From assembly GCA_049521435.1 (NCBI GenBank), contig JBEKOU010000003.1:12688-76687 (forward strand): 64,000 bases of DNA, read 5' to 3'. The stretch is from Candidatus Dormibacteria bacterium (GTDB lineage Bacteria > Chloroflexota > Dormibacteria > Aeolococcales > Aeolococcaceae). The notes beneath the pieces are model-generated. The model was not told where the DNA came from. It saw nothing but the letters and a program-made list of their open reading frames with translations, and searched no databases. The position numbers and the translations under genes were made by a program. This document shows, piece after piece, positions 222-10,911 of this stretch; within the stretch, counting starts at the first letter, position 1, and every line of letters begins with the position of its first letter.

Positions 222-3153
222 CACCCGAACTCTATGCAGAGGGCACGCAGAGCCGGTGAGGCGGCATGCTTGGCAGGTGGCCGACCAGCCTGATCCCCCA
301 CCTCCGGATGTCGAGGCCGAAGCGCAGCGGCGTCTCCGGCGCAATGTGCGCCTGGTCGGCACCCTGCTGGGCGAGACCCTCGCCGGGCAGGAGGGTGAGC
401 CGCTGCTCCAGCTCGAGGAGGAGGTCCGGGCCAAGACCAAGCAGCTCCGCGACCGCCACGACGAGGCGGTCAGCCAGGCGCTCGACCGCCAGCTCAGCGA
501 GATCGACGTCAGCACGGCCACCCGGCTGATCCGAGCCTTCTCCCTCTACTTCCAGCTGGTCAACGTGGCCGAGCTGGAGCACCGGGTGCAGGTGATCCGC
601 GGCATTCAGGCGGTCCCGGCCGGAGGGGTCGCCTCCCCGGGAACGTTCCACGACCTCTTCACCCGCGCCGCCCACGCCGAGGGCGGGCGGGAGCGGTTGC
701 TCACCGCGCTCGTGGAGCTGGACGTCGTGCCGGTGGTCACCGCCCACCCCACCGAGGCGGTGCGCCGCTCCGTCCTCGATCACGTCAACGGTGTTGCCAT
801 GGCCCTGGACGCGCTCGACGGTCCCGCGCCCGGCTCCCCTCGCCACACGGCACTCATCGACTCCATGCGGCGTCACATGGAGCTGCTCTGGCAGACCGAG
901 GAGCTCCGCACCGTGCGCCCCACCGTCCTCGACGAGGCCCGGGACATCCGCTTCCACCTCGACCTGCTGATGGACGTCATTCCCGCGGTCCACGCCGAGC
1001 TGGATCGGCGCTGGACCGAGGTCTTCGGCGGGCCACCTCCGCCCTTCCACCCCTTCCTCCGGCTCGGCTCCTGGGTCGGCGGCGACCAGGACGGCAACCC
1101 CCATGCCCGAGCCCGGACGCTCCGGGACGCCCTGCGCGCCCAGAAGCAGATGGTTCTCACCCGCTACCGCGACTCGGTGCATGCGATCTCCGTCCAGTAC
1201 AGCCAGTCCACCCGCTGGACCGGAGCCGACGCGGAGCTGGCGGCTTCCATCGCCGACGACGAGGCGCGGATGCCGGAGGCGGTGCACGACCTGGGGGACC
1301 GCAATCTCGGTGAGCCCTACCGGCGCAAGCTGACCCTGGTCCATCACCGCCTGGAGGCCTCCCTCGCCTACCTGCAAGGGGTCCGTGCGGCCGAGCGCCC
1401 CTACTCCACGGCGCAGGAGCTGCTCGACGACCTCGACCTGGTCGACGCCGCCCTGCGCCGTCAGCGCGGCGCCCTCTTCGCCGACGGCGGCCTGCTGGAG
1501 CTGCGACGCCAGGTGGGTGCCTTCGACTTCTACGGGTACGCGATCGACGTCCGGCTGCACGCCTCCCGTCTGCGCGAGGTCGCCTCGACGATCCTGCGCC
1601 AGTGCGGCCAGCTGGACCGCAGCCTCGACGACCTCGACGAGGACGCCGCGGTCGAGCTGCTCGCACGCGCCATGCAGCAGCGCGGGCCGCACATCGGCAC
1701 CTTGGCCCTCAGCGCCGACGACCGCGACCTCCTCGACACCCTGGTGGAGATGGGCCGCGCCCAGCGCTCGATCTCCCCCCACTCGACCGAGAGCGTGGTG
1801 ATCTCGATGACCCACTCGCCGGTCGAGGTGATGGCAGGGATGTGGCTCGCCTCCCTGGTCGGGCTGGTCTCCTGGTCCTTCGGCAGCGTGCACACCAGCC
1901 GATTTGACCTCGTGCCCCTGATGGAGACGATCGCCGGTCTGCGCTCCGCCCCGCGGGTGCTGCGCCGCCTGCTCGCCCAGCCCGAGTACGCCGAGCAGGT
2001 GCGGGCCCGCGGCAACATCCAGGAGGTGATGCTCGGATACAGCGACAGCAGCAAGGACGGCGGCTACCTCGCCGCCCAGTGGTCGCTGTACGTCGCCCAC
2101 CGCCAGCTCGCGCGGGTCTGCGACGAGGCGGGCGTGCACCTCCGCCTCTTCCACGGCCGGGGCGGCACGGTGTCGCGCGGGGGAGGGCCCACCCACGAGG
2201 CGCTCCTCTCCCAACCGCCGGGGGCGGTGCGCGGCCGGGTCCGGCTGACCGAGCAGGGCGAGATCCTTCACTACCGCTACTCGCGCGAGGAGGTGGCCCA
2301 GAACCACCTGGAGCTGGTTGCCGCGGCGGTCTGGGAGGCGAGCTCGCTGCAGACCCCGCTCCCCTTGGAGCAGGAGGCGGTCTGGGAGACGGCGATGGCG
2401 CGCATCGCGGCCGACAGCTACCGGCGCTACCGGGCCTTCGTGTACACGGATGAATTCGAGCGTTTCTTCACCGAGGTGACGCCGATCGGCGAGCTGGGGC
2501 AGCTCAACATCGGCTCCCGGCCGGTGAGCCGCGGGGAGTCCACGCGGATCGCCGAGTTGCGGGCGATCCCGTGGGTGTTCGCGTGGAACCAGACCCGGCT
2601 GATGCTGCCCACCTGGTACGGGGTGGGTGGGTCGCTGGTGGCCTTCGCCGAGGACCTGCCCGTTGATGCCGAAGATGACCGCAACGCGCCACCGCCCAGT
2701 GATGTCGAGGGACCGCTGCCGGCGGCGGGGACGGCGCGCTGGAAGCTGCTCCACCAGATGTACCGGCGCTGGCCGTTCTTTCGCGCCCTGATCGGCAACC
2801 TGGAGATGACCCTGGCCAAGACCGACATGGGGGTGGCGAGCCGCTACTTCGAGCTGGTCCGGGACCCCGGGCTGCGCGAGCGGATGTGGGTGGATGTGAC
2901 CGCCGAGCACGCGCGGACGCTCCAGGCGGTGCTCCACATCACCGGCAAGCGCACCCTGCTGGCCGACCAGCCGCTCCTCCAGGAGACGCTCCGGCTCCGC
3001 GACCCCTACATCGACCCCCTCTCCGTCCTCCAGGCCCAGATGCTGGCCCGTTACCGGGCCCTGGACGAGGCCGACCCGCAGCGCGCAGCTCTGCTGGAGG
3101 CGATCCTGCGGAGCGTCAACGGGATCGCCGCGGGCTTGCAGAACACCGGCTGA
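193..3153 (+). CDS. ppc: phosphoenolpyruvate carboxylase
   Basis: 986-aa ORF with VTAHPTEAVRRSV, GYSDSSKDGGYLAAQW, FHGRGGTVSRGGGP and the C-terminal NTG. The true start is probably the in-frame GTG at 256 or 277, because 193-221 overlaps the divergent gene and RLRRNVRLVGTLLGETL aligns near the N-terminus of known Ppc. Confidence 0.95.
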   Translation: MPRRRAAMSITRTLCRGHAEPVRRHAWQVADQPDPPPPDVEAEAQRRLRRNVRLVGTLLGETLAGQEGEPLLQLEEEVRAKTKQLRDRHDEAVSQALDRQLSEIDVSTATRLIRAFSLYFQLVNVAELEHRVQVIRGIQAVPAGGVASPGTFHDLFTRAAHAEGGRERLLTALVELDVVPVVTAHPTEAVRRSVLDHVNGVAMALDALDGPAPGSPRHTALIDSMRRHMELLWQTEELRTVRPTVLDEARDIRFHLDLLMDVIPAVHAELDRRWTEVFGGPPPPFHPFLRLGSWVGGDQDGNPHARARTLRDALRAQKQMVLTRYRDSVHAISVQYSQSTRWTGADAELAASIADDEARMPEAVHDLGDRNLGEPYRRKLTLVHHRLEASLAYLQGVRAAERPYSTAQELLDDLDLVDAALRRQRGALFADGGLLELRRQVGAFDFYGYAIDVRLHASRLREVASTILRQCGQLDRSLDDLDEDAAVELLARAMQQRGPHIGTLALSADDRDLLDTLVEMGRAQRSISPHSTESVVISMTHSPVEVMAGMWLASLVGLVSWSFGSVHTSRFDLVPLMETIAGLRSAPRVLRRLLAQPEYAEQVRARGNIQEVMLGYSDSSKDGGYLAAQWSLYVAHRQLARVCDEAGVHLRLFHGRGGTVSRGGGPTHEALLSQPPGAVRGRVRLTEQGEILHYRYSREEVAQNHLELVAAAVWEASSLQTPLPLEQEAVWETAMARIAADSYRRYRAFVYTDEFERFFTEVTPIGELGQLNIGSRPVSRGESTRIAELRAIPWVFAWNQTRLMLPTWYGVGGSLVAFAEDLPVDAEDDRNAPPPSDVEGPLPAAGTARWKLLHQMYRRWPFFRALIGNLEMTLAKTDMGVASRYFELVRDPGLRERMWVDVTAEHARTLQAVLHITGKRTLLADQPLLQETLRLRDPYIDPLSVLQAQMLARYRALDEADPQRAALLEAILRSVNGIAAGLQNTG

Positions 3154-3166
3154 CGAGTACGCTGTC

Positions 3167-3889
3167 GTGACGATGGAGCGAAGGGAAGAGAGCATCTGGG
3201 GCCACGATGGGCACCGGTTCTCCGCCTCGCTCTCGCTTCCGGAGGGCGGGATGGGGCCGGGACTGGTGGTGGTCCAGGAGATATTCGGCCTCACCCCGTA
3301 TGTCAAGGGCGTGTGCGACCGCCTTGCCGGCCTCGGCTACGTCGCGCTGGCACCCGACCTCTACTCGCGGTTGGAGCCCGACCTGGTGCTCGACGAGCAC
3401 CTCCCCGAGAGCCTGCCGCGCGCCTTCCAGGCGATGCAGCGGCTGGACGTGCCTCAGGCGGCCGACGACGCGGCGGCCACCCTGGAGCATCTGCGGAGCA
3501 TTCCCGAGACCCGCGACCACCGGGTTGGGATCATCGGATTCTGCCTGGGTGGCGGCATCGCCTACATGGTGGCGGCAGCGTCCGACCCCGCGGTCGCCGT
3601 CTGCTACTACGGGTCGGCCATCCCCGGCGCCCTCGAGCTGGCTCCCAAGATCACCTGCCCGATCCTCTTCCACTTCGGCGAGGACGACACCTACATCAAC
3701 ACCGCTCAGCGCCGGGCGGTGGCCCACGAGTTCGCCGGCCGCCGCCACGTGGAGCTGCACCTCCACCCCCACGCCGGCCACGCCTTTGACAACCACGACT
3801 CGGCGATGTTCTCCCGACCCCAGGCCGCAGCCCGGGCCTGGGAGCAGACCGCGGCCTTCCTGGAGTACCACCTGCCTCCCCGGGGGTGA
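3167..3889 (+). CDS. dienelactone hydrolase family protein
   Basis: GLVVVQEIFGLTPYVKGVCDRLAGLGYVALAPDLY, nucleophile-elbow-like GFCLGGGIAY, HPHAGHAF near the C-terminus. Alternative ATG at 3173. Confidence 0.8.
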   Translation: MTMERREESIWGHDGHRFSASLSLPEGGMGPGLVVVQEIFGLTPYVKGVCDRLAGLGYVALAPDLYSRLEPDLVLDEHLPESLPRAFQAMQRLDVPQAADDAAATLEHLRSIPETRDHRVGIIGFCLGGGIAYMVAAASDPAVAVCYYGSAIPGALELAPKITCPILFHFGEDDTYINTAQRRAVAHEFAGRRHVELHLHPHAGHAFDNHDSAMFSRPQAAARAWEQTAAFLEYHLPPRG

Positions 3890-3961: not shown

Positions 3962-4294
3962 GTGGCACCAGCGGCGGGACAGGGCGCATCGGGCAGCAGC
4001 GCCACCCTGTACGTCGGCAGCATCACCTCCTTCAACGACCTCTCGGACGCGTTCCAGCGGGCGCGCGGCCAGCTCGTCAACGCCGCTGCCGACCTCGGGG
4101 CGCACGGCTCGGCCGCCGGCGACCCCTTTGGCCACGCCTCGTCTGACACCGCCTACGGGGAGGTGCTCCGGGAGACGCTGACCGCCCTGGACAACCTCGG
4201 CGACGGCCTGCAGACGCTGGGACGGCGGGTCGAGGAAGCCGGAGCCGTGCTCGTGGCCGCCGAGCAGAGCATCGCGCGGTCGATGACGCCCTGA
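3962..4294 (+). CDS. small helical protein, possible WXG100-like partner or chaperone of the downstream toxin
   Basis: GTG start with GGAGGA 8 nt upstream and high GC3. 110 aa predicted as two helices around a central Gly/Pro turn (AAGDPFGHASS). Sits 19 nt upstream of the toxin ORF. Confidence 0.5.
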   Translation: MAPAAGQGASGSSATLYVGSITSFNDLSDAFQRARGQLVNAAADLGAHGSAAGDPFGHASSDTAYGEVLRETLTALDNLGDGLQTLGRRVEEAGAVLVAAEQSIARSMTP

Positions 4295-4313
4295 GAGGGA
4301 GGGGAATCCACTC

Positions 4314-5375
4314 ATGGGCCTTCCCGGCTGGATGCCCGGCCGGCCGGGCGGCGACCCGCAGCGGCTCACCCGGATGGCAGCTGCCTGGGAGGCCGTCGAC
4401 ACGGCCCTGCAGGCTGCCGAGCGGCAGCTCGCCCCACAGGCCGAGGACATCTCGCCCTGGTGGCGGGGGCAGGCGGCCGGCGCCTACACGGCGGCCTGGT
4501 ACGAGTACTCGGCCGGCCTGGCCCCGCTCCACCAGCAGCTCCAGGCGGTGGCGGGGGCCCTGCACGTGGCCTCCTTCGCGATCTGCAGCGCCCAGATGCA
4601 GTACGACCAGGCCGTCGAGGAGGTGATGGCCGGGGCCGCGGTCCTGACCGGCGCGGCCCTCTTCACCTTTGGCCTGTCGGAGGCCGGTGAGGCGGGGATC
4701 CTGGCGTCGGCCAGCGCCACCATCACGGAGCTTCTCGCAAGCCTGGCCGAGGCATTGGCGGAGATCGCCGCCTCCATCGGCGAGGCGCTCGCCGCCATGG
4801 CCCGGATCGCGGCCCAGCTGCTGCTGCCGCTTGGTGGAGGTGCGGGAACAGGTGGCGGGATGGCATTGGCCCTTGCCGGCGGCGGCACCCTGACCGTCAC
4901 CACCACCACGGCCGGCACCGGGCTGGCGGTCAGCGGGACGGTCGTTGCCGCCGGCGCCGTCGCGATCGACGCCCTGCTGGCCAAGGCGCTCGGCGGTGGC
5001 GGTGGGCATCTCAGCGCCGGGGGTGGGGGGAGCGGTAGCGAGGTCAACCCGCGAGATCAGGTCCCGCGCAGGTATGAGGCCGACACGAAATCCCTCAACC
5101 ACTTCGCGTCGAGGCACGGCAACGCCTTCGGCCTCCCGCAGACGACGCCGACCGTCGCCGGGCGTGCGGCCATCAGCGACTACATCCGGGACTGGATCAT
5201 GGACCCGGCCCACGAGCAGATCGTGGGCACCTTCCAGCGACAGCCCGCCATCATCTACCTTGACCCGGGCACGGGCCAAGTGATGTTCACGTATCCTGAC
5301 GGTCAGTTCTGGAGCGGGTTTCAGCTGGGCAAAACTCAGCTCAGCAGCCTGCTCACCACGGGAGGGTTCGCGTGA
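4314..5375 (+). CDS. polymorphic toxin: WXG100/T7SS-substrate-like N-domain, Gly/Ala-rich hydrophobic middle, colicin-D-like C-terminal domain (tentative)
   Basis: SD GGGAGGGG. N-terminus LTRMAAAWEAVDTALQAAERQL...SPWWRGQAAGAYTAAWYEY carries a W-x-G turn. A GGGGSGSE linker precedes NHFASRHGNAFGL...QFWSGFQLGKTQLSSLLTTGGFA. Confidence 0.7.
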   Translation: MGLPGWMPGRPGGDPQRLTRMAAAWEAVDTALQAAERQLAPQAEDISPWWRGQAAGAYTAAWYEYSAGLAPLHQQLQAVAGALHVASFAICSAQMQYDQAVEEVMAGAAVLTGAALFTFGLSEAGEAGILASASATITELLASLAEALAEIAASIGEALAAMARIAAQLLLPLGGGAGTGGGMALALAGGGTLTVTTTTAGTGLAVSGTVVAAGAVAIDALLAKALGGGGGHLSAGGGGSGSEVNPRDQVPRRYEADTKSLNHFASRHGNAFGLPQTTPTVAGRAAISDYIRDWIMDPAHEQIVGTFQRQPAIIYLDPGTGQVMFTYPDGQFWSGFQLGKTQLSSLLTTGGFA

Positions 5376-5782
5376 CTCCGGGGATCGGCGAGTTTCGTCA
5401 AACCATGCTCGACTTCGTCGATGGCCGTATCGCCGTCGGTGAATTCGACAGTGTCTACGTGAAGATGTGGGAGGAGCGGCGAGACCACGACTGGGCTGTC
5501 CTTGACGCGGAACATCCCCGGGCGCACCACCTCATACGTGAGAATCGCGCGGAATGGGACCGCATCAACGCCGAGCTGACCCACAAGGGCGAGTTGCTCC
5601 CCGACGACATCCAGACGGCGCTGGACCACATTTACACCGACCTCGATGTCCTCGATCAACGACCGTACGGGATCACGGTGGATCAGCTGCGCGAGGATTG
5701 CCGGCAGGCAATCACCCAGCTCGACGAACTGGGGCACGCGGCGCCCTCATCGGATGAGCGCACCGGAGATGGGGGTGCCTAG
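5372..5782 (+). CDS. cognate immunity protein (colicin D immunity / Colicin_immun-like, tentative)
   Basis: GTGA overlap with the toxin stop. LDFVDGRIAVGEFDSVYVKMWEERR resembles ImmD [23 protein letters not shown] as I recall it. Acidic, 136 aa. Confidence 0.6.
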   Translation: MTPGIGEFRQTMLDFVDGRIAVGEFDSVYVKMWEERRDHDWAVLDAEHPRAHHLIRENRAEWDRINAELTHKGELLPDDIQTALDHIYTDLDVLDQRPYGITVDQLREDCRQAITQLDELGHAAPSSDERTGDGGA

Positions 5783-5804
5783 CTACGCGTGGCACCCCGG
5801 CGCC

Positions 5805-5833
5805 TTGGGCCGATGCAAGCAATGTGCTAGCAT
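5805..5833 (+). promoter_or_regulatory. candidate sigma70-type promoter giving a leaderless vapBC mRNA, overlapped by TGCWAGCA boxes
   Basis: TTGGGC, 17-nt spacer, TAGCAT, 6 nt, then ATG at 5840. TGCAAGCA-ATG-TGCTAGCA (5813-5831) is an imperfect palindrome over the -10. Confidence 0.45.
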
Positions 5834-5839
5834 GGCCGA

Positions 5840-6061
5840 ATGAAGACCCTCTACCTGCGCAACGTCCCCGACGAGGTGGCGAGCCGGCTTCAGGGGATGG
5901 CGAACCGAGCCGGGCTGTCACTCACGGCGTTCGCCGTCCGTCAGCTGGCCGCCGTGGCGCGGCAGTCGGACAACGCCGCGCTGCTCGCTGAGTTGCCCGA
6001 CCTCGGCTTCTCGGCCGACCTCGTACTCAACGATCTCGATGCGGGCCGGGACGCACGGTGA
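5840..6061 (+). CDS. vapB: VapB/FitA-like ribbon-helix-helix antitoxin
   Basis: MKTLYLRNVPDEVASRLQGMANRAGLSLTAF is the classic RHH antitoxin N-terminus. 4-nt overlap with the PIN gene. Confidence 0.85.
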   Translation: MKTLYLRNVPDEVASRLQGMANRAGLSLTAFAVRQLAAVARQSDNAALLAELPDLGFSADLVLNDLDAGRDAR

Positions 6062-6441
6062 TCGTGGTGGATGCGTCAGCCGCAGTTCTGGCCCTGGTCA
6101 ACGCCGGCGACGCTCGCCGCCGTCTCCAGGTCGAGGAGCTCCATGCGCCGGGGCTGGTCGACTCCGAAGTGGTTCACGTCATCCGCCGTCAGGAGAGGGC
6201 CGGCATGCTCGGCTCGACGGAGGCCGCACGTGTGATCGACACGTGGCGCCGCCTCGGGATCCGCCGTCACTCGGTCCAAGGACAGATCGAACGGATATGG
6301 GAGCTGCGCCACAACCTCACGGGTTATGACGCGACGTACGTAGCCCTCGCGGAAGGTTTGGGATGCGAGCTCGTCACTGCAGACCGAAGGCTGACGGGCA
6401 CGCCGAAGCTCAGCTGTCCGGTGACCCTGGTCACGTCGTAG
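6058..6441 (+). CDS. vapC: PIN-domain ribonuclease toxin VapC
   Basis: MIVVDASAAV (first acidic residue), DSEV, TGYDATYVALAEGLGCELVTADRRL (PIN C-terminal acidic motif). Confidence 0.9.
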   Translation: MIVVDASAAVLALVNAGDARRRLQVEELHAPGLVDSEVVHVIRRQERAGMLGSTEAARVIDTWRRLGIRRHSVQGQIERIWELRHNLTGYDATYVALAEGLGCELVTADRRLTGTPKLSCPVTLVTS

Positions 6442-6543: not shown

Positions 6544-6590
6544 TCAGTACACTGCCGATCGCATCACCTGCATCTTGGGAAGGAAGGACT

Positions 6591-7499
6591 GTGGGCACCT
6601 CTCTCCCCTGCCCGTCTGGATCTTCGAGCCGGCCCTGTCTGGCTCGCTTGCGCCGATGGCTCGCGACCCTCACGCTGCTGGCCAGCCTGGCAGCCGGGTG
6701 TGGCACTGGGGCCCACGCAACCGCCGGCACGTCGACCGCCTCGCCGATCACCTCCAGCACCACGCGCGCGACCGGGGCGAACCCCAGCGCGACGGCGAGT
6801 GCGGGCGTGATTGCCACTTCCTACTGCGACGAACAGGACACCACGATCCCGGGAGCCGCGGCGTTTCTCTCTGATCAGGGGCCACGGCCGACCAACCTCA
6901 CGGCCGTCCAGGAGGCCTGGTTCGATATGGAGGCCACGATGGTTCCGGCGTGCTCTGAGATCGTGCCCGAACCACCGGCGGTCACCATGCAGAACCTGAC
7001 CAACGGTCAGCTGAGCAGCGCCGAGTTCCAGACCTGGGTGACCGAGGATGAGATGTGGTGGACCCTCGCCGAGTGGGCTGGCCAGCACGACCAACCCGAC
7101 TTTGTCACCGACTTCTTGTACGGGGGGAGTGGCAACACGTTTACCAGCTTCCTTCGCGCTGGAGGCAAGGTGGTGGACAGCCAGACCTGCGAGTACGCGT
7201 TGAAGTACGACGCGGTGGCGGTGACGGCTGAGCAGATGTCGGATCTCACCGTGAACCGTTTGACGAACGCCGGCGTCGTCTTCGTCGGAGCCGCTATCGG
7301 GCCCTGCACAAGTACATGGACGGCGTCGGACGGCACCGTCACGAACAAGGGCCTAGCTGCCGGGCAAGAGGGACGGGAGCTTGACGTTACGACGACACAC
7401 ACCAACGCCGCGCTCGGCCAGTATCTAGTTGTCAATGACAGTTGGGATCAAGGCGACGACGCGACTGCGGATTCGATCTTCAGTCTAGTTGGGATCTGA
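6591..7499 (+). CDS. hypothetical lipoprotein
   Basis: GTG start behind GGAAGGAAGGA. The N-terminus ends in LLASLAAGCG (lipobox-like), followed by a Ser/Thr/Ala-rich linker. No family recognised. Confidence 0.6.
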   Translation: MGTSLPCPSGSSSRPCLARLRRWLATLTLLASLAAGCGTGAHATAGTSTASPITSSTTRATGANPSATASAGVIATSYCDEQDTTIPGAAAFLSDQGPRPTNLTAVQEAWFDMEATMVPACSEIVPEPPAVTMQNLTNGQLSSAEFQTWVTEDEMWWTLAEWAGQHDQPDFVTDFLYGGSGNTFTSFLRAGGKVVDSQTCEYALKYDAVAVTAEQMSDLTVNRLTNAGVVFVGAAIGPCTSTWTASDGTVTNKGLAAGQEGRELDVTTTHTNAALGQYLVVNDSWDQGDDATADSIFSLVGI

Positions 7500-8847
7500 A
7501 GGATTGGGCCGCCGCAGGTTACTCGCGGTACTCTGTGCGCTGAGCGCGATTGTCGTGAGCACCGGGGCCACGGCGGTGCTCGCCTACTCCGGGAATGGGG
7601 TGACCGCCAACTGTCAGCCTGCCGCGGGACTGAGCCTGGCGATCGGAAAACCTCCACAGCCGGGGCCTGCTGGTAGCGTCGCCGCCGATGGCAGCCTCAC
7701 CCTCTACTGCCGGACCACGGGTACCAACTCGCGAGACGGGATCTATACCCCCGGGACCAACCCGCCGCCTCCCAAAGCCGGCACGCCCTGCAGCGTGAAC
7801 ATCGGCTACGAAGGCGCTCAGGTGCTTGGCCAATCGTTTCTGGAGTCCGAGTACCTGCCCGGCGCGGTGACGGTCTTCCCGTTCGCTCTTTGGACCGGGA
7901 CCATCAATGCCGACATCGTGCCTTCATCGGGCTCCTTCGGCGACCTCTGGGGGAGTGTGGCCGACACGGCACCGGCGGCACTCGGGGTCAATTGGGCAGC
8001 CGCCTCCCAGTACGGACCCGCCCCACCCAGCGCTCTACCCGACTCAGGGCTCGCCACGGGGGGGTTCATCATGTCTGGACTGGAGAACCAGACGCTCGTC
8101 GCCTCAGTGACGACCGAGCCCGGCGGCGATGGGGAATGGGAGAAGAGTTCCGGCGGCGAGTGGCTGTGCGACGGGCCGCGGCTCAGTCTCACCGTCCAGC
8201 CGGAGCCCGACGTGGCCACCCCGCCCTCCGAGACGCCACCAGTCGAAACCACCTGGGCAGTGCCGACCGTGCAGCAGGCAATGGCCGTGGCCGGTGTGAC
8301 GGCTGGACAGGTGCAGACCAGCGCTCCGGACAACTACGTCGTCTTCGCGCCCACGACGTTCTGGATCACCCCGCAGCCCCAGGGGCCTGACGTCCCCCCC
8401 GTGGTCACGAACGTCATCGGTCCCCCCGACGCCAACGGCGAATCCATCGTCTACAGCTACTACCTGGCCGTGGAGCCGTCCGACACGATCAACTGGACCT
8501 TCGGGGACGGCACGACCGGCACGTCCCAGGCGGAGAGCTCGGGACCGGGGGAAGCTGGGATCACCCACTACTACAAGCAGATCAGCGGTGAGGGGGCACT
8601 GCCAGCCGCCGGTTCGACCGTCTCGGCGGCCCAGGACGTGACCGTGACCGCCTTCGTGGGCTGGATTGACGGCACCAACACCGCCTATTACGAATGCGTC
8701 ACTCCCGACGGCGGGGTTGACGGCATCAACCACAACACCCAGGCCCAGGCGATAACCGCCTGCAGCATCACCTACCCCGACGCGCTCGTCGACGCCGCCC
8801 TCCCGGCCAAGCCCGTCTACCAGGTCCGGACCGTCCCGGTGGCGTGA
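7489..8847 (+). CDS. secreted protein with a C-terminal PKD-like module
   Basis: Signal-like RRRLLAVLCALSAIVVSTGATAVLAYS. INWTFGDGTTG...ITHYYK matches the PKD WxFGDG...HxY signature. Overlaps the upstream lipoprotein gene by 11 nt. Confidence 0.6.
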   Translation: MGSEGLGRRRLLAVLCALSAIVVSTGATAVLAYSGNGVTANCQPAAGLSLAIGKPPQPGPAGSVAADGSLTLYCRTTGTNSRDGIYTPGTNPPPPKAGTPCSVNIGYEGAQVLGQSFLESEYLPGAVTVFPFALWTGTINADIVPSSGSFGDLWGSVADTAPAALGVNWAAASQYGPAPPSALPDSGLATGGFIMSGLENQTLVASVTTEPGGDGEWEKSSGGEWLCDGPRLSLTVQPEPDVATPPSETPPVETTWAVPTVQQAMAVAGVTAGQVQTSAPDNYVVFAPTTFWITPQPQGPDVPPVVTNVIGPPDANGESIVYSYYLAVEPSDTINWTFGDGTTGTSQAESSGPGEAGITHYYKQISGEGALPAAGSTVSAAQDVTVTAFVGWIDGTNTAYYECVTPDGGVDGINHNTQAQAITACSITYPDALVDAALPAKPVYQVRTVPVA

Positions 8848-8848
8848 C

Positions 8849-9412
8849 GTGCTGGGGGGGCGACCGCGACAACCCCACCGCGGTGGGCAGGCCACTGTGG
8901 AGTTTGCTCTCGTCTTTGGCGTGTTTCTCCTGGCACTGATGGCGATCCTCGACACCTGGATCTGGACCATCGAGACCGATGCCGCGGATGCATCCGTCGA
9001 ACAGGGCATCGGGGTTGCGATGTCGGCCCAGGGCTCCGCAACCAGCCTCACTCCCGCGCTCACCGATGTGTACGCGAACGTCCTTCCGCTCCTGCAGCAA
9101 CCGATGCTCGGGACGACCGTGGAGAACTGGTACGCGTCCAACCTCGCCGCGCTGCGCGGCGAGATCGGACCGAACGCATGCCCGACCGCCGACCAGGTGG
9201 CCGACTACTTCAACGATCTCCACTCGGGCTATGACGGAGTCGGGCACGTCGTCGTCTGCGCCGCCGACGACGGCGATGGCCACGTCACGGTGGCGATCAC
9301 CGGCTATGCCCTCTCCATGGTGCCGCCCGGCTTCGGGCCCTTCAACTGGCGCGGTTGGGGCCTCCCGATCTCAGAGACGGCCTCCGTCAACGTGGGCACG
9401 TATTCGCCATGA
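8849..9412 (+). CDS. TadE-like pseudopilin
   Basis: GGQATVEFALVFGVFLLALMAIL is the TadE/TadG N-terminal motif. Starts 1 nt after the upstream stop. Confidence 0.7.
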   Translation: MLGGRPRQPHRGGQATVEFALVFGVFLLALMAILDTWIWTIETDAADASVEQGIGVAMSAQGSATSLTPALTDVYANVLPLLQQPMLGTTVENWYASNLAALRGEIGPNACPTADQVADYFNDLHSGYDGVGHVVVCAADDGDGHVTVAITGYALSMVPPGFGPFNWRGWGLPISETASVNVGTYSP

Positions 9413-9918
9413 GAACCCGGCCCAGTTGGCGCCGCGGCCAGCGAGCACAGGCCGCCCTCGAGATGGCCCTGGTGCTCCCCGTCATGATCGTCATCGTCTG
9501 TGGATTCGTGGGGATGATGCTCGAGCTCAGGGCGGAGAACGAATTCCAGACGGCGGTCGATCTCTCGGCTCAGGCAGCGCTGGTGCCTCCACTCGGAGAT
9601 CAGACCGCCAGCCAGGCCGATTCCGCCTATGCCTTCTTGCACACTCTCAACCCGAGCGGCAGTGAGAGCGGCTACCTGACCGTGACCACACCGATCACCT
9701 GCACAGGCCCCTACCTCGAGGGGGAGATCGACCTCAGCGCCAGGGGCATCCCGGCCCCCGTCACCTGCACCGCCCAGGCCACGCTCAACTTCTCCGCAAC
9801 CCCGATCAGCGTCTTCTGGTTCTGGTCGATCCAGCTCAGTGCCACAGCGGACGCGTATCCGCCCCAGTACCGGCAGTGCCAGACCACGTCGGGCTCGACC
9901 AGTCCCTTCCAATGCTGA
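9409..9918 (+). CDS. TadE-like pseudopilin (second copy)
   Basis: ATGA overlap with the previous gene. RGQRAQAALEMALVLPVMIVIVCGF. Confidence 0.7.
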   Translation: MRTRPSWRRGQRAQAALEMALVLPVMIVIVCGFVGMMLELRAENEFQTAVDLSAQAALVPPLGDQTASQADSAYAFLHTLNPSGSESGYLTVTTPITCTGPYLEGEIDLSARGIPAPVTCTAQATLNFSATPISVFWFWSIQLSATADAYPPQYRQCQTTSGSTSPFQC

Positions 9919-10355
9919 GTCGCCGCCAGAGCCGGATCCGAGAGCACGGCCAGATCCTGGTGATGTTCGCCTTCTCGATGCTCTTCCTCATCGTGGGCAT
10001 GATCGCCGTGGCCGTGGATCTCTCCCAGCTGTACGAGGCGCACGTGCGCGCACAGGACGCCGCGGAGCAGGCGGCGGCGGCCGGAGCGAGCCAGGTCGAC
10101 TACGTCGCCGCCGAGAGCAGCGTTGCCTCTCTCCTGCCGTCCTTTGCCTCGGTCTGCAGCGGTGCCGGCGACGCCTTCAGCGGCGTCGTGGGCTCGACGA
10201 CGTGCACGAGCCCAGAGGGAACCGATGACGTGGTCGCGTCCGTCACGGTCCGAGCCTCGGTGGCTTTGCCACTCCCGTTCTTGGGCGGCACGTTCACCAT
10301 CGCAACGACGTCCACCGCCGCGCCCGTGGTGGGCGGACTGGCGCCGGTGGGATAG
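9912..10355 (+). CDS. TadG-like / pilus-assembly N-terminal domain protein
   Basis: ATG at 9912 overlaps the previous stop. EHGQILVMFAFSMLFLIVGMIAVAVDLSQLY resembles the Tad N-terminal domain of TadG-type proteins. Confidence 0.6.
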   Translation: MLSRRQSRIREHGQILVMFAFSMLFLIVGMIAVAVDLSQLYEAHVRAQDAAEQAAAAGASQVDYVAAESSVASLLPSFASVCSGAGDAFSGVVGSTTCTSPEGTDDVVASVTVRASVALPLPFLGGTFTIATTSTAAPVVGGLAPVG

Positions 10356-10473: not shown

Positions 10474-10911
10474 TCAGTTGGGCGGGCTGGGTGGAGTCGC
10501 ACGTGCGATCACGGCCCGGTGCGAGGCCGGCACCAGCAATCCCAGAAGGCACGCCGCGGGCACCAGAGTGATGAAGACAGACCCCGGTAGCGTCGCGGAA
10601 AGAGCGCTCGAGAGCGACGACCATCCATGGGTCGGTACTAAGGCCAGCGCTCCGCTCGGGCCCCATATCGCCTCGGCGAGGCTGACACACCCCAGCAGCA
10701 GCAGCGCTGCCTGCAGCGCCACCACCACCCAGTACGCGGAAGGGCGGCGGGACGCAGCGACGGCTAGGCCGATCCAGAGCGCCATCGCCACAATCGCGAC
10801 GACGACGAGCAGGATGAGCTGGGTCCAACTCAGGGTCGAACCGCCCCAAACACTGTTCCAGAAGAGCACGACCGCCACAGTGGGCGGCCCCAAGAGGCCC
10901 TCCAGCACCAT
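10474..10911 (-). CDS. small integral membrane protein (about 4 TM), unknown function
   Basis: 145-aa ORF with good codon bias and hydrophobic segments (VAVVLFW, LILLVVVAIVAMALWIGLAVAA, YWVVVALQAALLLLGCV, FITLVPAACLLGLLV). Confidence 0.5.
   Translation of the reverse strand: MVLEGLLGPPTVAVVLFWNSVWGGSTLSWTQLILLVVVAIVAMALWIGLAVAASRRPSAYWVVVALQAALLLLGCVSLAEAIWGPSGALALVPTHGWSSLSSALSATLPGSVFITLVPAACLLGLLVPASHRAVIARATPPSPPN

Follow-up and report, generated by a model that had tools for sequence, protein, structure and literature searches.

Within a 64,000-nucleotide stretch of DNA from a Candidatus Dormibacteria bacterium (the window), five plus-strand genes, here named p1 to p5, encode a lipoprotein, a large secreted protein, two TadE-like proteins and a short TadG-like protein. 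The last three very probably constitute a satellite minor-pilin set. Since pilus motors are found elsewhere in the genome, the operon is not an unknown machine; it represents a variant of the spare cassettes for pilus tips that were described recently. The explanation we favour, which we hold at about even, is that a satellite Tad tip or priming set has captured a lineage-specific surface pair, p1 and p2, and that p2 is possibly displayed at the tip.

The window corresponds to positions 12688-76687 of contig C3 in a 2.65-Mb assembly of 62 contigs (89% complete), and the closest public records are metagenome-assembled genomes of Candidatus Dormibacterota/Dormibacteria. An earlier note, made from the letters alone, had described five tightly packed reading frames, and this is borne out both by open reading frame calls and by a base-by-base reading of the junctions; each gene either overlaps or abuts the next (Table 1). 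As the ATGA overlap with p3 sets the start of p4, this protein has 169 amino acids and not the 187 of the longest open reading frame. The five-gene cluster recurs in more than 14 related genomes and in several metagenome contigs, and is therefore not a chance arrangement.

The p3-p5 minor-pilin set and its candidate motor

The two TadE calls and the TadG call of the earlier note stand up to profile comparison. p3 scores 30.6 bits against TadE (PF07811, cut-off 22.9) and p5 44.2-44.4 bits against Tad (PF13400, cut-off 22.3). p4 falls just under the TadE cut-off with 21.6-21.9 bits, and is accepted as a putative divergent member of the family on account of its size, its position and the architecture of its N-terminus. 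Comparison with NCBIfam, PADLOC and PHROGs yielded no matches for p1-p4 and only sub-threshold TadE-like ones for p5; the NCBIfam models for Rv3654c/Rv3655c reached E 0.09-0.3, far below their cut-offs.

With the starts defined by the gene overlaps, p3, p4 and p5 each have a basic leader of 13 residues, a glutamine at +1 and one N-terminal hydrophobic segment. The globular parts that follow are 100-140 residues long and contain conserved cysteines, two in p3, four in p4 and two in the approximately 100-residue globular part of p5. The leader junction of p3, G13/QATVEF, gives this protein a canonical prepilin-peptidase (class III) site with Gly at -1 and Glu at +5, and the pattern GQ(A/S)T(V/L)EF is kept among its relatives. 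The corresponding pattern among p4 relatives is AQA(A/V)(I/L)E(M/T)A, so that p4 agrees with class III only in part, and p5 relatives keep GQ(I/V)L(V/I)(M/A)F. p5 is short, and lacks the large distal C-terminal domain, often vWA, of TadG/CpaL/KilN-type proteins, which have 500-800 amino acids in total.

The TadE and Tad N-terminal Pfam domains and the Gly -1/Glu +5 site of p3 are shared with TadE/TadF/TadG of Aggregatibacter actinomycetemcomitans and with the actinobacterial Rv3654c/Rv3655c-type proteins, and the small size is as in the monoderm actinobacterial versions. The genes of those systems sit in the tad locus by flp, tadA and tadBC, whereas here they are remote from such genes.

No T2SSE ATPase, T2SSF platform, A24 peptidase or Flp gene was found in the window or within 60 kb, and the nearest ATPase gene lies 62 kb past the window end. 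The earlier note was thus right that the 64 kb hold no pilus machinery, and its term orphan is apt for the window; it is not apt for the genome, which encodes Flp, TadB/C, CpaB, CpaF-type ATPases and a prepilin peptidase elsewhere. Its suggestion of a stand-alone secretion module is unlikely, since the operon has no gene for an ATPase, a platform protein or a peptidase.

T2SSE ATPases are encoded at six places in the genome, among them C1:162k (accompanied by PilC and by a PilT-like gene at 157k), C1:366k, C1:370k, C3:138k and C27:5k, and T2SSF genes are found at three loci, among them C1:352-354k and C58. The canonical Tad locus at C1:349-372k encodes an Flp pilin (PF04964, 37.5 bits), TadC, TadB, CpaB/RcpC and two CpaF-type ATPases. 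A second Flp gene is present on C4, and the single A24 prepilin peptidase gene is found at C7:54222-55082. No secretin was found in the genome, and the envelope is for this reason probably of the monoderm type. Between cpaB and cpaF, the canonical Tad locus (C1:349212-371853) also holds a gene for a SipW-like signal peptidase and genes for four paralogous TasA/camelysin-like proteins of about 200 amino acids.

A divergent Tad-like machine is encoded at C27:3002-9643 (also L033, 1683-8000). The cluster comprises CpaB-like, ParA-like, ATPase and TadB/C-like genes, and includes a 132-amino-acid membrane protein and a ParA-like protein of 519 amino acids; its ATPase has a weak T2SSE match. This C27-type machine is conserved in 15 of the 22 genera of the family.

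Three more TadE-TadE-TadG sets are found in the genome (C7:38360-42170, C15:6807-10400 and C1:506171-509291), none of which adjoins an ATPase or platform gene. With all four sets distant from the motors, remote minor-pilin sets are the norm in this genome. The TadG-like proteins of the three other sets have 596-751 amino acids, are Cys-rich and, apart from the N-terminal Tad helix, show no recognised domain. Of the four, only the p3-p5 set has a TadG-like protein that is short and is joined by two additional genes. The sets on C3, C7, C15 and C1 thus agree with satellite "Tip" cassettes in being three-gene TadE/F/G-like units, remote from the motor and present in several copies.

Such cassettes were described for the Kil/Tad pilus of Myxococcus, which has four interchangeable TadE/F/G-like "Tip" trimers, three of them encoded off the motor locus (Herrou et al., 2025; PMC12075869). 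The Kil tips are disulfide-rich, and carry a variable distal domain on the large TadG-like subunit (PMC12075869). The sets of the present genome resemble M. xanthus KilL/KilM/KilN (PMC12075869) in being paralogous three-gene TadE/TadF/TadG-like sets, mostly motor-remote and Cys-rich, of the kind proposed to form interchangeable heterotrimeric tips, and here too there are four sets and several motors; the likeness was assessed at the N-terminal pilin helix. There are also differences. The variable distal domain resides in the large KilN/TadG of Myxococcus, whereas the TadG-like p5 has 147 amino acids, and only here are a lipoprotein and a separate secreted protein encoded alongside the set. The envelope is moreover probably of the monoderm type, without a secretin, and no link to predation or type III is seen.

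The machine at C27 is, with moderate confidence, the best candidate motor for the p3-p5 triad. It is favoured because triad and C27-type ATPase go together at the genus level and CpaF is nearly ubiquitous. Both triad and C27-type ATPase are present in 14 genera, each occurs alone in one, and neither is found in six (Fisher p 0.0006, in a genus-level test uncorrected for shared ancestry). Canonical CpaF is found in 20 of the 22 genera, including every genus without the triad. In one genome of another genus (G004), a p3-p5-like triad (41-44% identity) is followed by a cluster of CpaB-like, ParA-like, ATPase and TadB/C-like genes that is collinear with that on C27, and the triad is directly preceded by a gene cut by the contig end, whose last 75 residues match p2 in an end-to-end alignment (hhalign E 0.007). 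This is the sole relative in which the triad stands beside a tad-like motor cluster. However, G004 has three paralogous ATPases of the C27 type, and the one by the triad is a 44%-identical paralogue, not an orthologue, of the C27 ATPase. The ATPase search thus ruled out that the G004 motor cluster is the orthologue of that on C27, and because of this the locus carries less weight as evidence on the motor.

The p1 and p2 protein families

The lipoprotein call for p1 was correct. The protein has the lipobox LAAGC, and the lipobox cysteine, Cys37, is kept in at least 90% of 39 homologues, as expected for a bacterial lipoprotein. Cys79 and Cys121 are invariant in the homologue alignment, and Cys200 and Cys239 nearly so. 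In total 50 homologues were found, all of Dormibacteria type and none with an annotated Pfam domain. An AlphaFold2 model has a predicted local distance difference test score (pLDDT) above 90 for residues 77-302 and a predicted template modelling score of 0.70. This part is predicted to form a compact alpha+beta domain with a weak likeness to NTF2/Tim44/ARC6-type folds; a Foldseek comparison of the model with the PDB gave nothing at E<=0.001.

p2, secreted and disulfide-rich, starts with a signal peptide of the Sec type; its mature part contains six cysteines and comprises two beta-rich halves, the C-terminal one PKD-like, that are connected by a Pro-rich linker. A word-indexed search found 31 homologues, and an exhaustive profile search of 1.84 billion representatives gave only 38 matches at E<=1e-3. 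Among 26 aligned homologues C74, C101, C227, C403 and C425 are invariant. The same holds for W336 and F338-G339-D340-G341 of the motif that the earlier note had taken as a PKD-type module, while Y361/Y362 are nearly invariant. The protein is indeed secreted and the motif is PKD-like, but the match to Pfam PKD (PF00801) covers residues 333-364 only, at 15.7 bits against a cut-off of 23.5. Two PKD-repeat proteins (P0101 and P0106) match the profile segment at positions 313-345 of p2 repeat by repeat, 8-9 times each, and one p2 homologue has precomputed PKD matches. Judged by these alignments, the similarity to PKD is real at the level of the motif.

The extreme C-terminus of p2 is conserved. In the 26 sequences P442, Y444, Q445, R447 and P450 are invariant and K441, V443 and V451 nearly so, giving the family an almost invariant ending, P-x-K-P-V-Y-Q-V-R-x-I-P-V-A, which is a candidate docking beta-strand. 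The AlphaFold2 model built from the 26 sequences is poor (pLDDT 46), and only a beta-sandwich at about residues 95-240 reaches 60-80; the C-terminal segment is unstructured and of low confidence in this monomer model. Foldseek found nothing significant with it, only generic Ig-like sandwiches, which from such a model is uninformative. No homology to the PilY1 beta-propeller was detected by Pfam, NCBIfam or PDB sequence comparison, nor by Foldseek with the low-confidence model. The possibility of a "split TadG", judged by homology in sequence to the long TadG genes, was rejected, since tblastn finds no paralogue of p1 or p2 in their own genome.

The two family profiles likewise had no match among PDB sequences. 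The earlier note recognised no family for either protein, and none has emerged from Pfam, NCBIfam, PHROGs, PADLOC or the PDB. As far as sequence comparison can tell, p1 and p2 represent new protein families confined to the class Dormibacteria and without a known relative. Whatever the pair does, two Dormibacteria-only families are thereby defined, one of them with a confident fold prediction.

Linkage of the pair to the minor-pilin set

The p2 family was found in 21 of 117 genomes, distributed over the genus of the window genome (g1, 15/16), g6 (2/2) and g179 (4/4), and all 21 have a close p3 orthologue. On the co-occurrence of the genes in relatives, by which the earlier note wished its grouping to be judged, the outcome is mixed: p2 and p3 adjoin each other in 14 of the 21 genomes, in all three genera, but unlinked in the other seven, and a distant branch of the pair is never flanked by pilin genes. 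The site of the triad is fixed in g1 and g179 whether the pair is present or absent, the order being PEP carboxylase, dienelactone hydrolase, triad, pyridoxal phosphate (PLP) decarboxylase, PadR and ABC genes; in three loci (L030, L031 and L032) the dienelactone hydrolase, triad and PLP decarboxylase genes follow each other without the pair. In g6 (L028) the five genes are found in a different chromosomal context. The idea that a protein with a conserved end is encoded upstream of the triad in all genera was rejected, because the upstream gene in g11, g5 and g177 encodes an unrelated transmembrane/tetratricopeptide repeat protein with a carboxypeptidase-regulatory-like end.

Where the pair is directly upstream of the pilin genes and translationally coupled to them, all five proteins would be made together. 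Whether the pair is also functionally coupled to the p3-p5 set we regard as evenly balanced. Gene structure, family membership, distribution and synteny are established; for processing, the choice of machine and docking, we infer the following course. The single prepilin peptidase would most likely trim p3, and perhaps p4, and p3-p5 would form a trimeric complex that primes or tips an Flp filament. This filament would be the product of a Tad-type machine from another part of the genome, for which the divergent C27 machine is the best candidate. p1, tethered to the membrane, would hold p2 at the membrane surface. p2 would then dock on the minor-pilin complex by its C-terminal peptide, as PilC/PilY1 does on PilK, and so serve as the tip's distal binding part. 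This mode of docking, suggested by analogy and by the conservation of the peptide, which has a related counterpart in the distant branch described below, is a tentative element that we consider rather doubtful. The suggestion of the earlier note that the large proteins are tip or adhesin cargo may hold.

In PilC/PilY1, the last approximately 10 residues have been shown to contribute a strand to PilK in trans, while in Tad pili CpaL/TadG gives the equivalent strand in cis, and some assembly still takes place when CpaL lacks its middle domain (Ellison et al., 2026; PMC13533445). In Caulobacter crescentus the Tad filament is, as proposed here, primed by two small minor pilins, CpaJ and CpaK, and a TadG-like third, CpaL, which can be encoded elsewhere and whose extreme C-terminal strand is needed for assembly (PMC13533445; PMC11870444). 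CpaL has about 600 amino acids and provides the strand in cis to its own N-terminal pilin-like domain. p5, in contrast, lacks the large middle domain, and here only p2, a separate polypeptide with a cleavable Sec signal and no pilin helix, is large and has a conserved extreme C-terminus. With PilC/PilY1 of the type IVa systems, where PilI/J/K-type minor pilins are found (PMC13533445), p2 shares the features of a large Sec-exported non-pilin encoded in a minor-pilin operon and conserved in its last approximately 10 residues. It differs in that its gene precedes the pilin genes, in having neither a beta-propeller nor detectable PilY1 homology, in belonging to a Tad-type system, and in that its family is found also without adjacent pilin genes; docking is observed for PilC/PilY1 and proposed by comparison for p2.

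Several observations weigh against a coupling of the pair to the pilins. Pair and triad are both kept but unlinked in 7 of the 21 genomes (G232, G334, G337, G338, G340, G357 and G358), five of which belong to g1. In three of them the two lie on the same contig about 310-330 kb apart, and in the others on different contigs; in the three that were examined (G232, G337 and G357) the triad is at its usual site with a clean junction. p2 is apparently interrupted in two relatives with an intact triad (G334:C2:148189-149441, L086; G339:C4:514466-515717, L088), by an in-frame TAG in one and by a split over two frames in the other, which may reflect either genuine decay or an error of assembly. Loci without adjoining pilin genes show the C-terminal motif just as conserved, and p1 may therefore be the sole partner of this peptide. 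As to the pilins themselves, p4 has alanine instead of glycine at -1 and p5 has no Glu at +5, a feature p5 shares with Aggregatibacter TadG.

A further argument comes from the distant branch of the p2 family. Its members have 360-430 amino acids and end in ..VGQVEG(I/V)P(V/I)G, and are otherwise about 23% identical to p2; they are homologous to it across the C-terminal half, the very last residues included (hhalign 99.7%, E 1e-26), and their lipoproteins are homologous to p1 (hhalign 96%, E 2e-9). A metagenome scan queried with three distant sequences gave 34 loci, and wherever upstream sequence is held, an overlapping gene for a p1-homologous lipoprotein is found in front. In the approximately 20 loci with readable downstream sequence, none has TadE/TadG genes after the pair. 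Among 301 genomes sampled from the phylum, the two branches occur in one and the same class only. Since the distant branch keeps its lipoprotein partner without pilins and is class-confined, the pair is, on this comparative evidence, an older self-contained two-gene module of the class Dormibacteria.

Nearly as likely as the reading we favour, though itself short of probable, is that p1 and p2 form an autonomous lipoprotein-anchored heterodimer at the surface of the cytoplasmic membrane that is merely co-transcribed with the pilin genes and has a function in binding, sensing or cell-surface maintenance unrelated to pili. The C-terminal peptide of p2 would then complete a sheet in p1, the pair would be a lineage-specific insertion into a permissive site, and the triad would work alone as a satellite set. 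The pair without the triad, in the distant-branch loci and in genomes of families f4 and f5, the overlap of the p1-like and p2-like genes there, and the clean dienelactone hydrolase-triad junction in genomes with unlinked pairs are all in keeping with this, as is the fact that the insertion site also accepts toxin cassettes. On a p2 tree rooted with distant relatives, furthermore, linked and unlinked forms are interspersed, and three changes are needed. An insertion of this kind accounts less well for an adjacency kept in three genera and at least two chromosomal contexts, for a p2-p3 gap of one base or an overlap in both g1 and g6, for the row of p2-like gene, triad and machine in G004, and for the close triad orthologue in every genome with this p2 family.

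Within g1 there are two types of p2, which share only 42-45% identity, against 79-86% for the housekeeping genes at their flanks and 60-75% for the triad. The pattern points to old alternative alleles, between-lineage exchange or very fast evolution of the two pair forms. Each genome of the genus has one form or the other, at different sites (window 7489-8847 as against L014, L029 and L083-L084). In the type-B loci of g1 that were examined, the pair adjoins a convergent histidine kinase-response regulator pair. At one locus (L020) the p1 lipoprotein gene is found in tandem duplicate, at 1722-2576 and 3025-3831, upstream of a type-B p2.

Should the coupling of the pair to the tip set be borne out, modular pilus tips of the Myxococcus type would be known also from an uncultured soil phylum of monoderm bacteria, the function of the distal tip could reside on a secreted protein of its own that is partnered by a lipoprotein, and the PilY1-type (in trans) and CpaL-type (in cis) licensing of type IV filaments would be linked. 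A bolder version, which we consider unlikely, is that here, for the first time in a Tad (type IVc) system, the C-terminal beta-strand that licenses the tip would be donated in trans by a separate Sec-exported non-pilin, p2, with p1 as the membrane-side holder and the pair as a portable adaptor plugged into different minor-pilin sets. If the pair is autonomous, what is left is two hypothetical surface proteins next to a satellite minor-pilin set of the ordinary kind. The presence of several remote minor-pilin sets and Tad-type motors in Dormibacteria in any case bears on the surface attachment of oligotrophic soil bacteria.

It is improbable that p3-p5 are unassembled bitopic proteins that, together with p1, tether p2 to the surface in a membrane complex independent of pili, in line with the stand-alone anchoring module that the earlier note had considered. 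The residues at -1 in p4 and +5 in p5 and the lack of a motor nearby would fit such a complex, and short TadE/TadG-like proteins are common in monoderm bacteria, for instance as actinobacterial Rv3654c/Rv3655c-type genes, whose role has to our knowledge largely not been tested. Against it stand the canonical site of p3, conserved in relatives, and the peptidase and several Tad-type motors encoded in the genome. The genus distribution of the triad moreover tracks one motor type, and a motor cluster directly adjoins the triad in G004.

That p1 and p2 are a surface accessory of WXG100 (type VII-like) toxin export, with the pilin genes as bystanders, is very improbable: such cassettes do lie beside the pair in six separate contexts and with different pair clades (the window, L014/L015/L029, L023, L038, L028 and L063), but half of the loci have no such neighbour, the position (upstream or downstream) and content of the cassette vary as expected for an insertion hot spot, p1 and p2 resemble no known type VII component, and a crude scan for an EssC/EccC-like multi-P-loop ATPase found none, returning ClpB, ClpC and one unexamined open reading frame. 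The recurrence of the cassettes beside the pair may reflect either an insertion hot spot or a functional link.

Feature positions and neighbouring genes

Table 1. Positions of the genes and sequence motifs discussed; numbering is that of the window unless a locus is named.
Feature	Position	Strand	Remarks
Shine-Dalgarno-like, purine-rich sequence AAGGAAGGA	6580..6588	+	Read from the sequence; precedes the GTG start of p1
p1, lipoprotein, 302 aa	6591..7499	+	Open reading frame, GTG start
p1 lipobox L33-A-A-G-C37	6687..6701	+	Translation and homologue alignment
p2, Sec-secreted protein, 452 aa	7489..8847	+	Open reading frame, TTG start; 11-nt overlap with p1
p2 PKD-like motif W336-T-F-G-D-G341	8494..8511	+	Homologue conservation
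p2 extreme C-terminal peptide K441-PVYQVRTVPVA452	8809..8844	+	Conservation; candidate docking beta-strand
p3, TadE-like minor pilin, 187 aa	8849..9412	+	Starts one base past the p2 stop
p3 class III (prepilin peptidase) motif G13/Q14-A-T-V-E18-F	8885..8905	+	Gly -1, Glu +5
p4, second TadE-like minor pilin, 169 aa	9409..9918	+	ATGA overlap with p3
p4 class III-like motif A13/Q14-A-A-L-E18-M	9445..9465	+	Ala -1, Glu +5
p5, short TadG-like protein, 147 aa	9912..10355	+	ATGCTGA overlap with p4
p5 leader junction G13/Q14-I-L-V-M18-F	9948..9968	+	Gly -1, no Glu at +5
WXG100-type cassette by the pair, window	3962-6441		WXG100-type genes at 3962-5782
WXG100-type cassette by the pair, L038	12086-13600		
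WXG100-type cassette by the pair, L028	13161-15600		
WXG100-type cassette by the pair, L063	1532-3201		

The cassette upstream of p1 in the window consists of a gene for a 110-amino-acid helper, one for a WXG100-colicin D toxin and one for immunity; vapBC comes next. The GC content of the genome is about 70%, and that of the five-gene stretch is slightly lower than that of its surroundings (0.66-0.67 vs 0.70-0.72); third-position GC is 0.79-0.87 in p1-p5 and about 0.9 in most neighbouring genes. A gene for a multi-pass membrane protein of 145 amino acids (10474-10911, minus strand) is convergent with the end of p5, and appears to belong to the downstream PLP-decarboxylase operon and not to the pilin operon.

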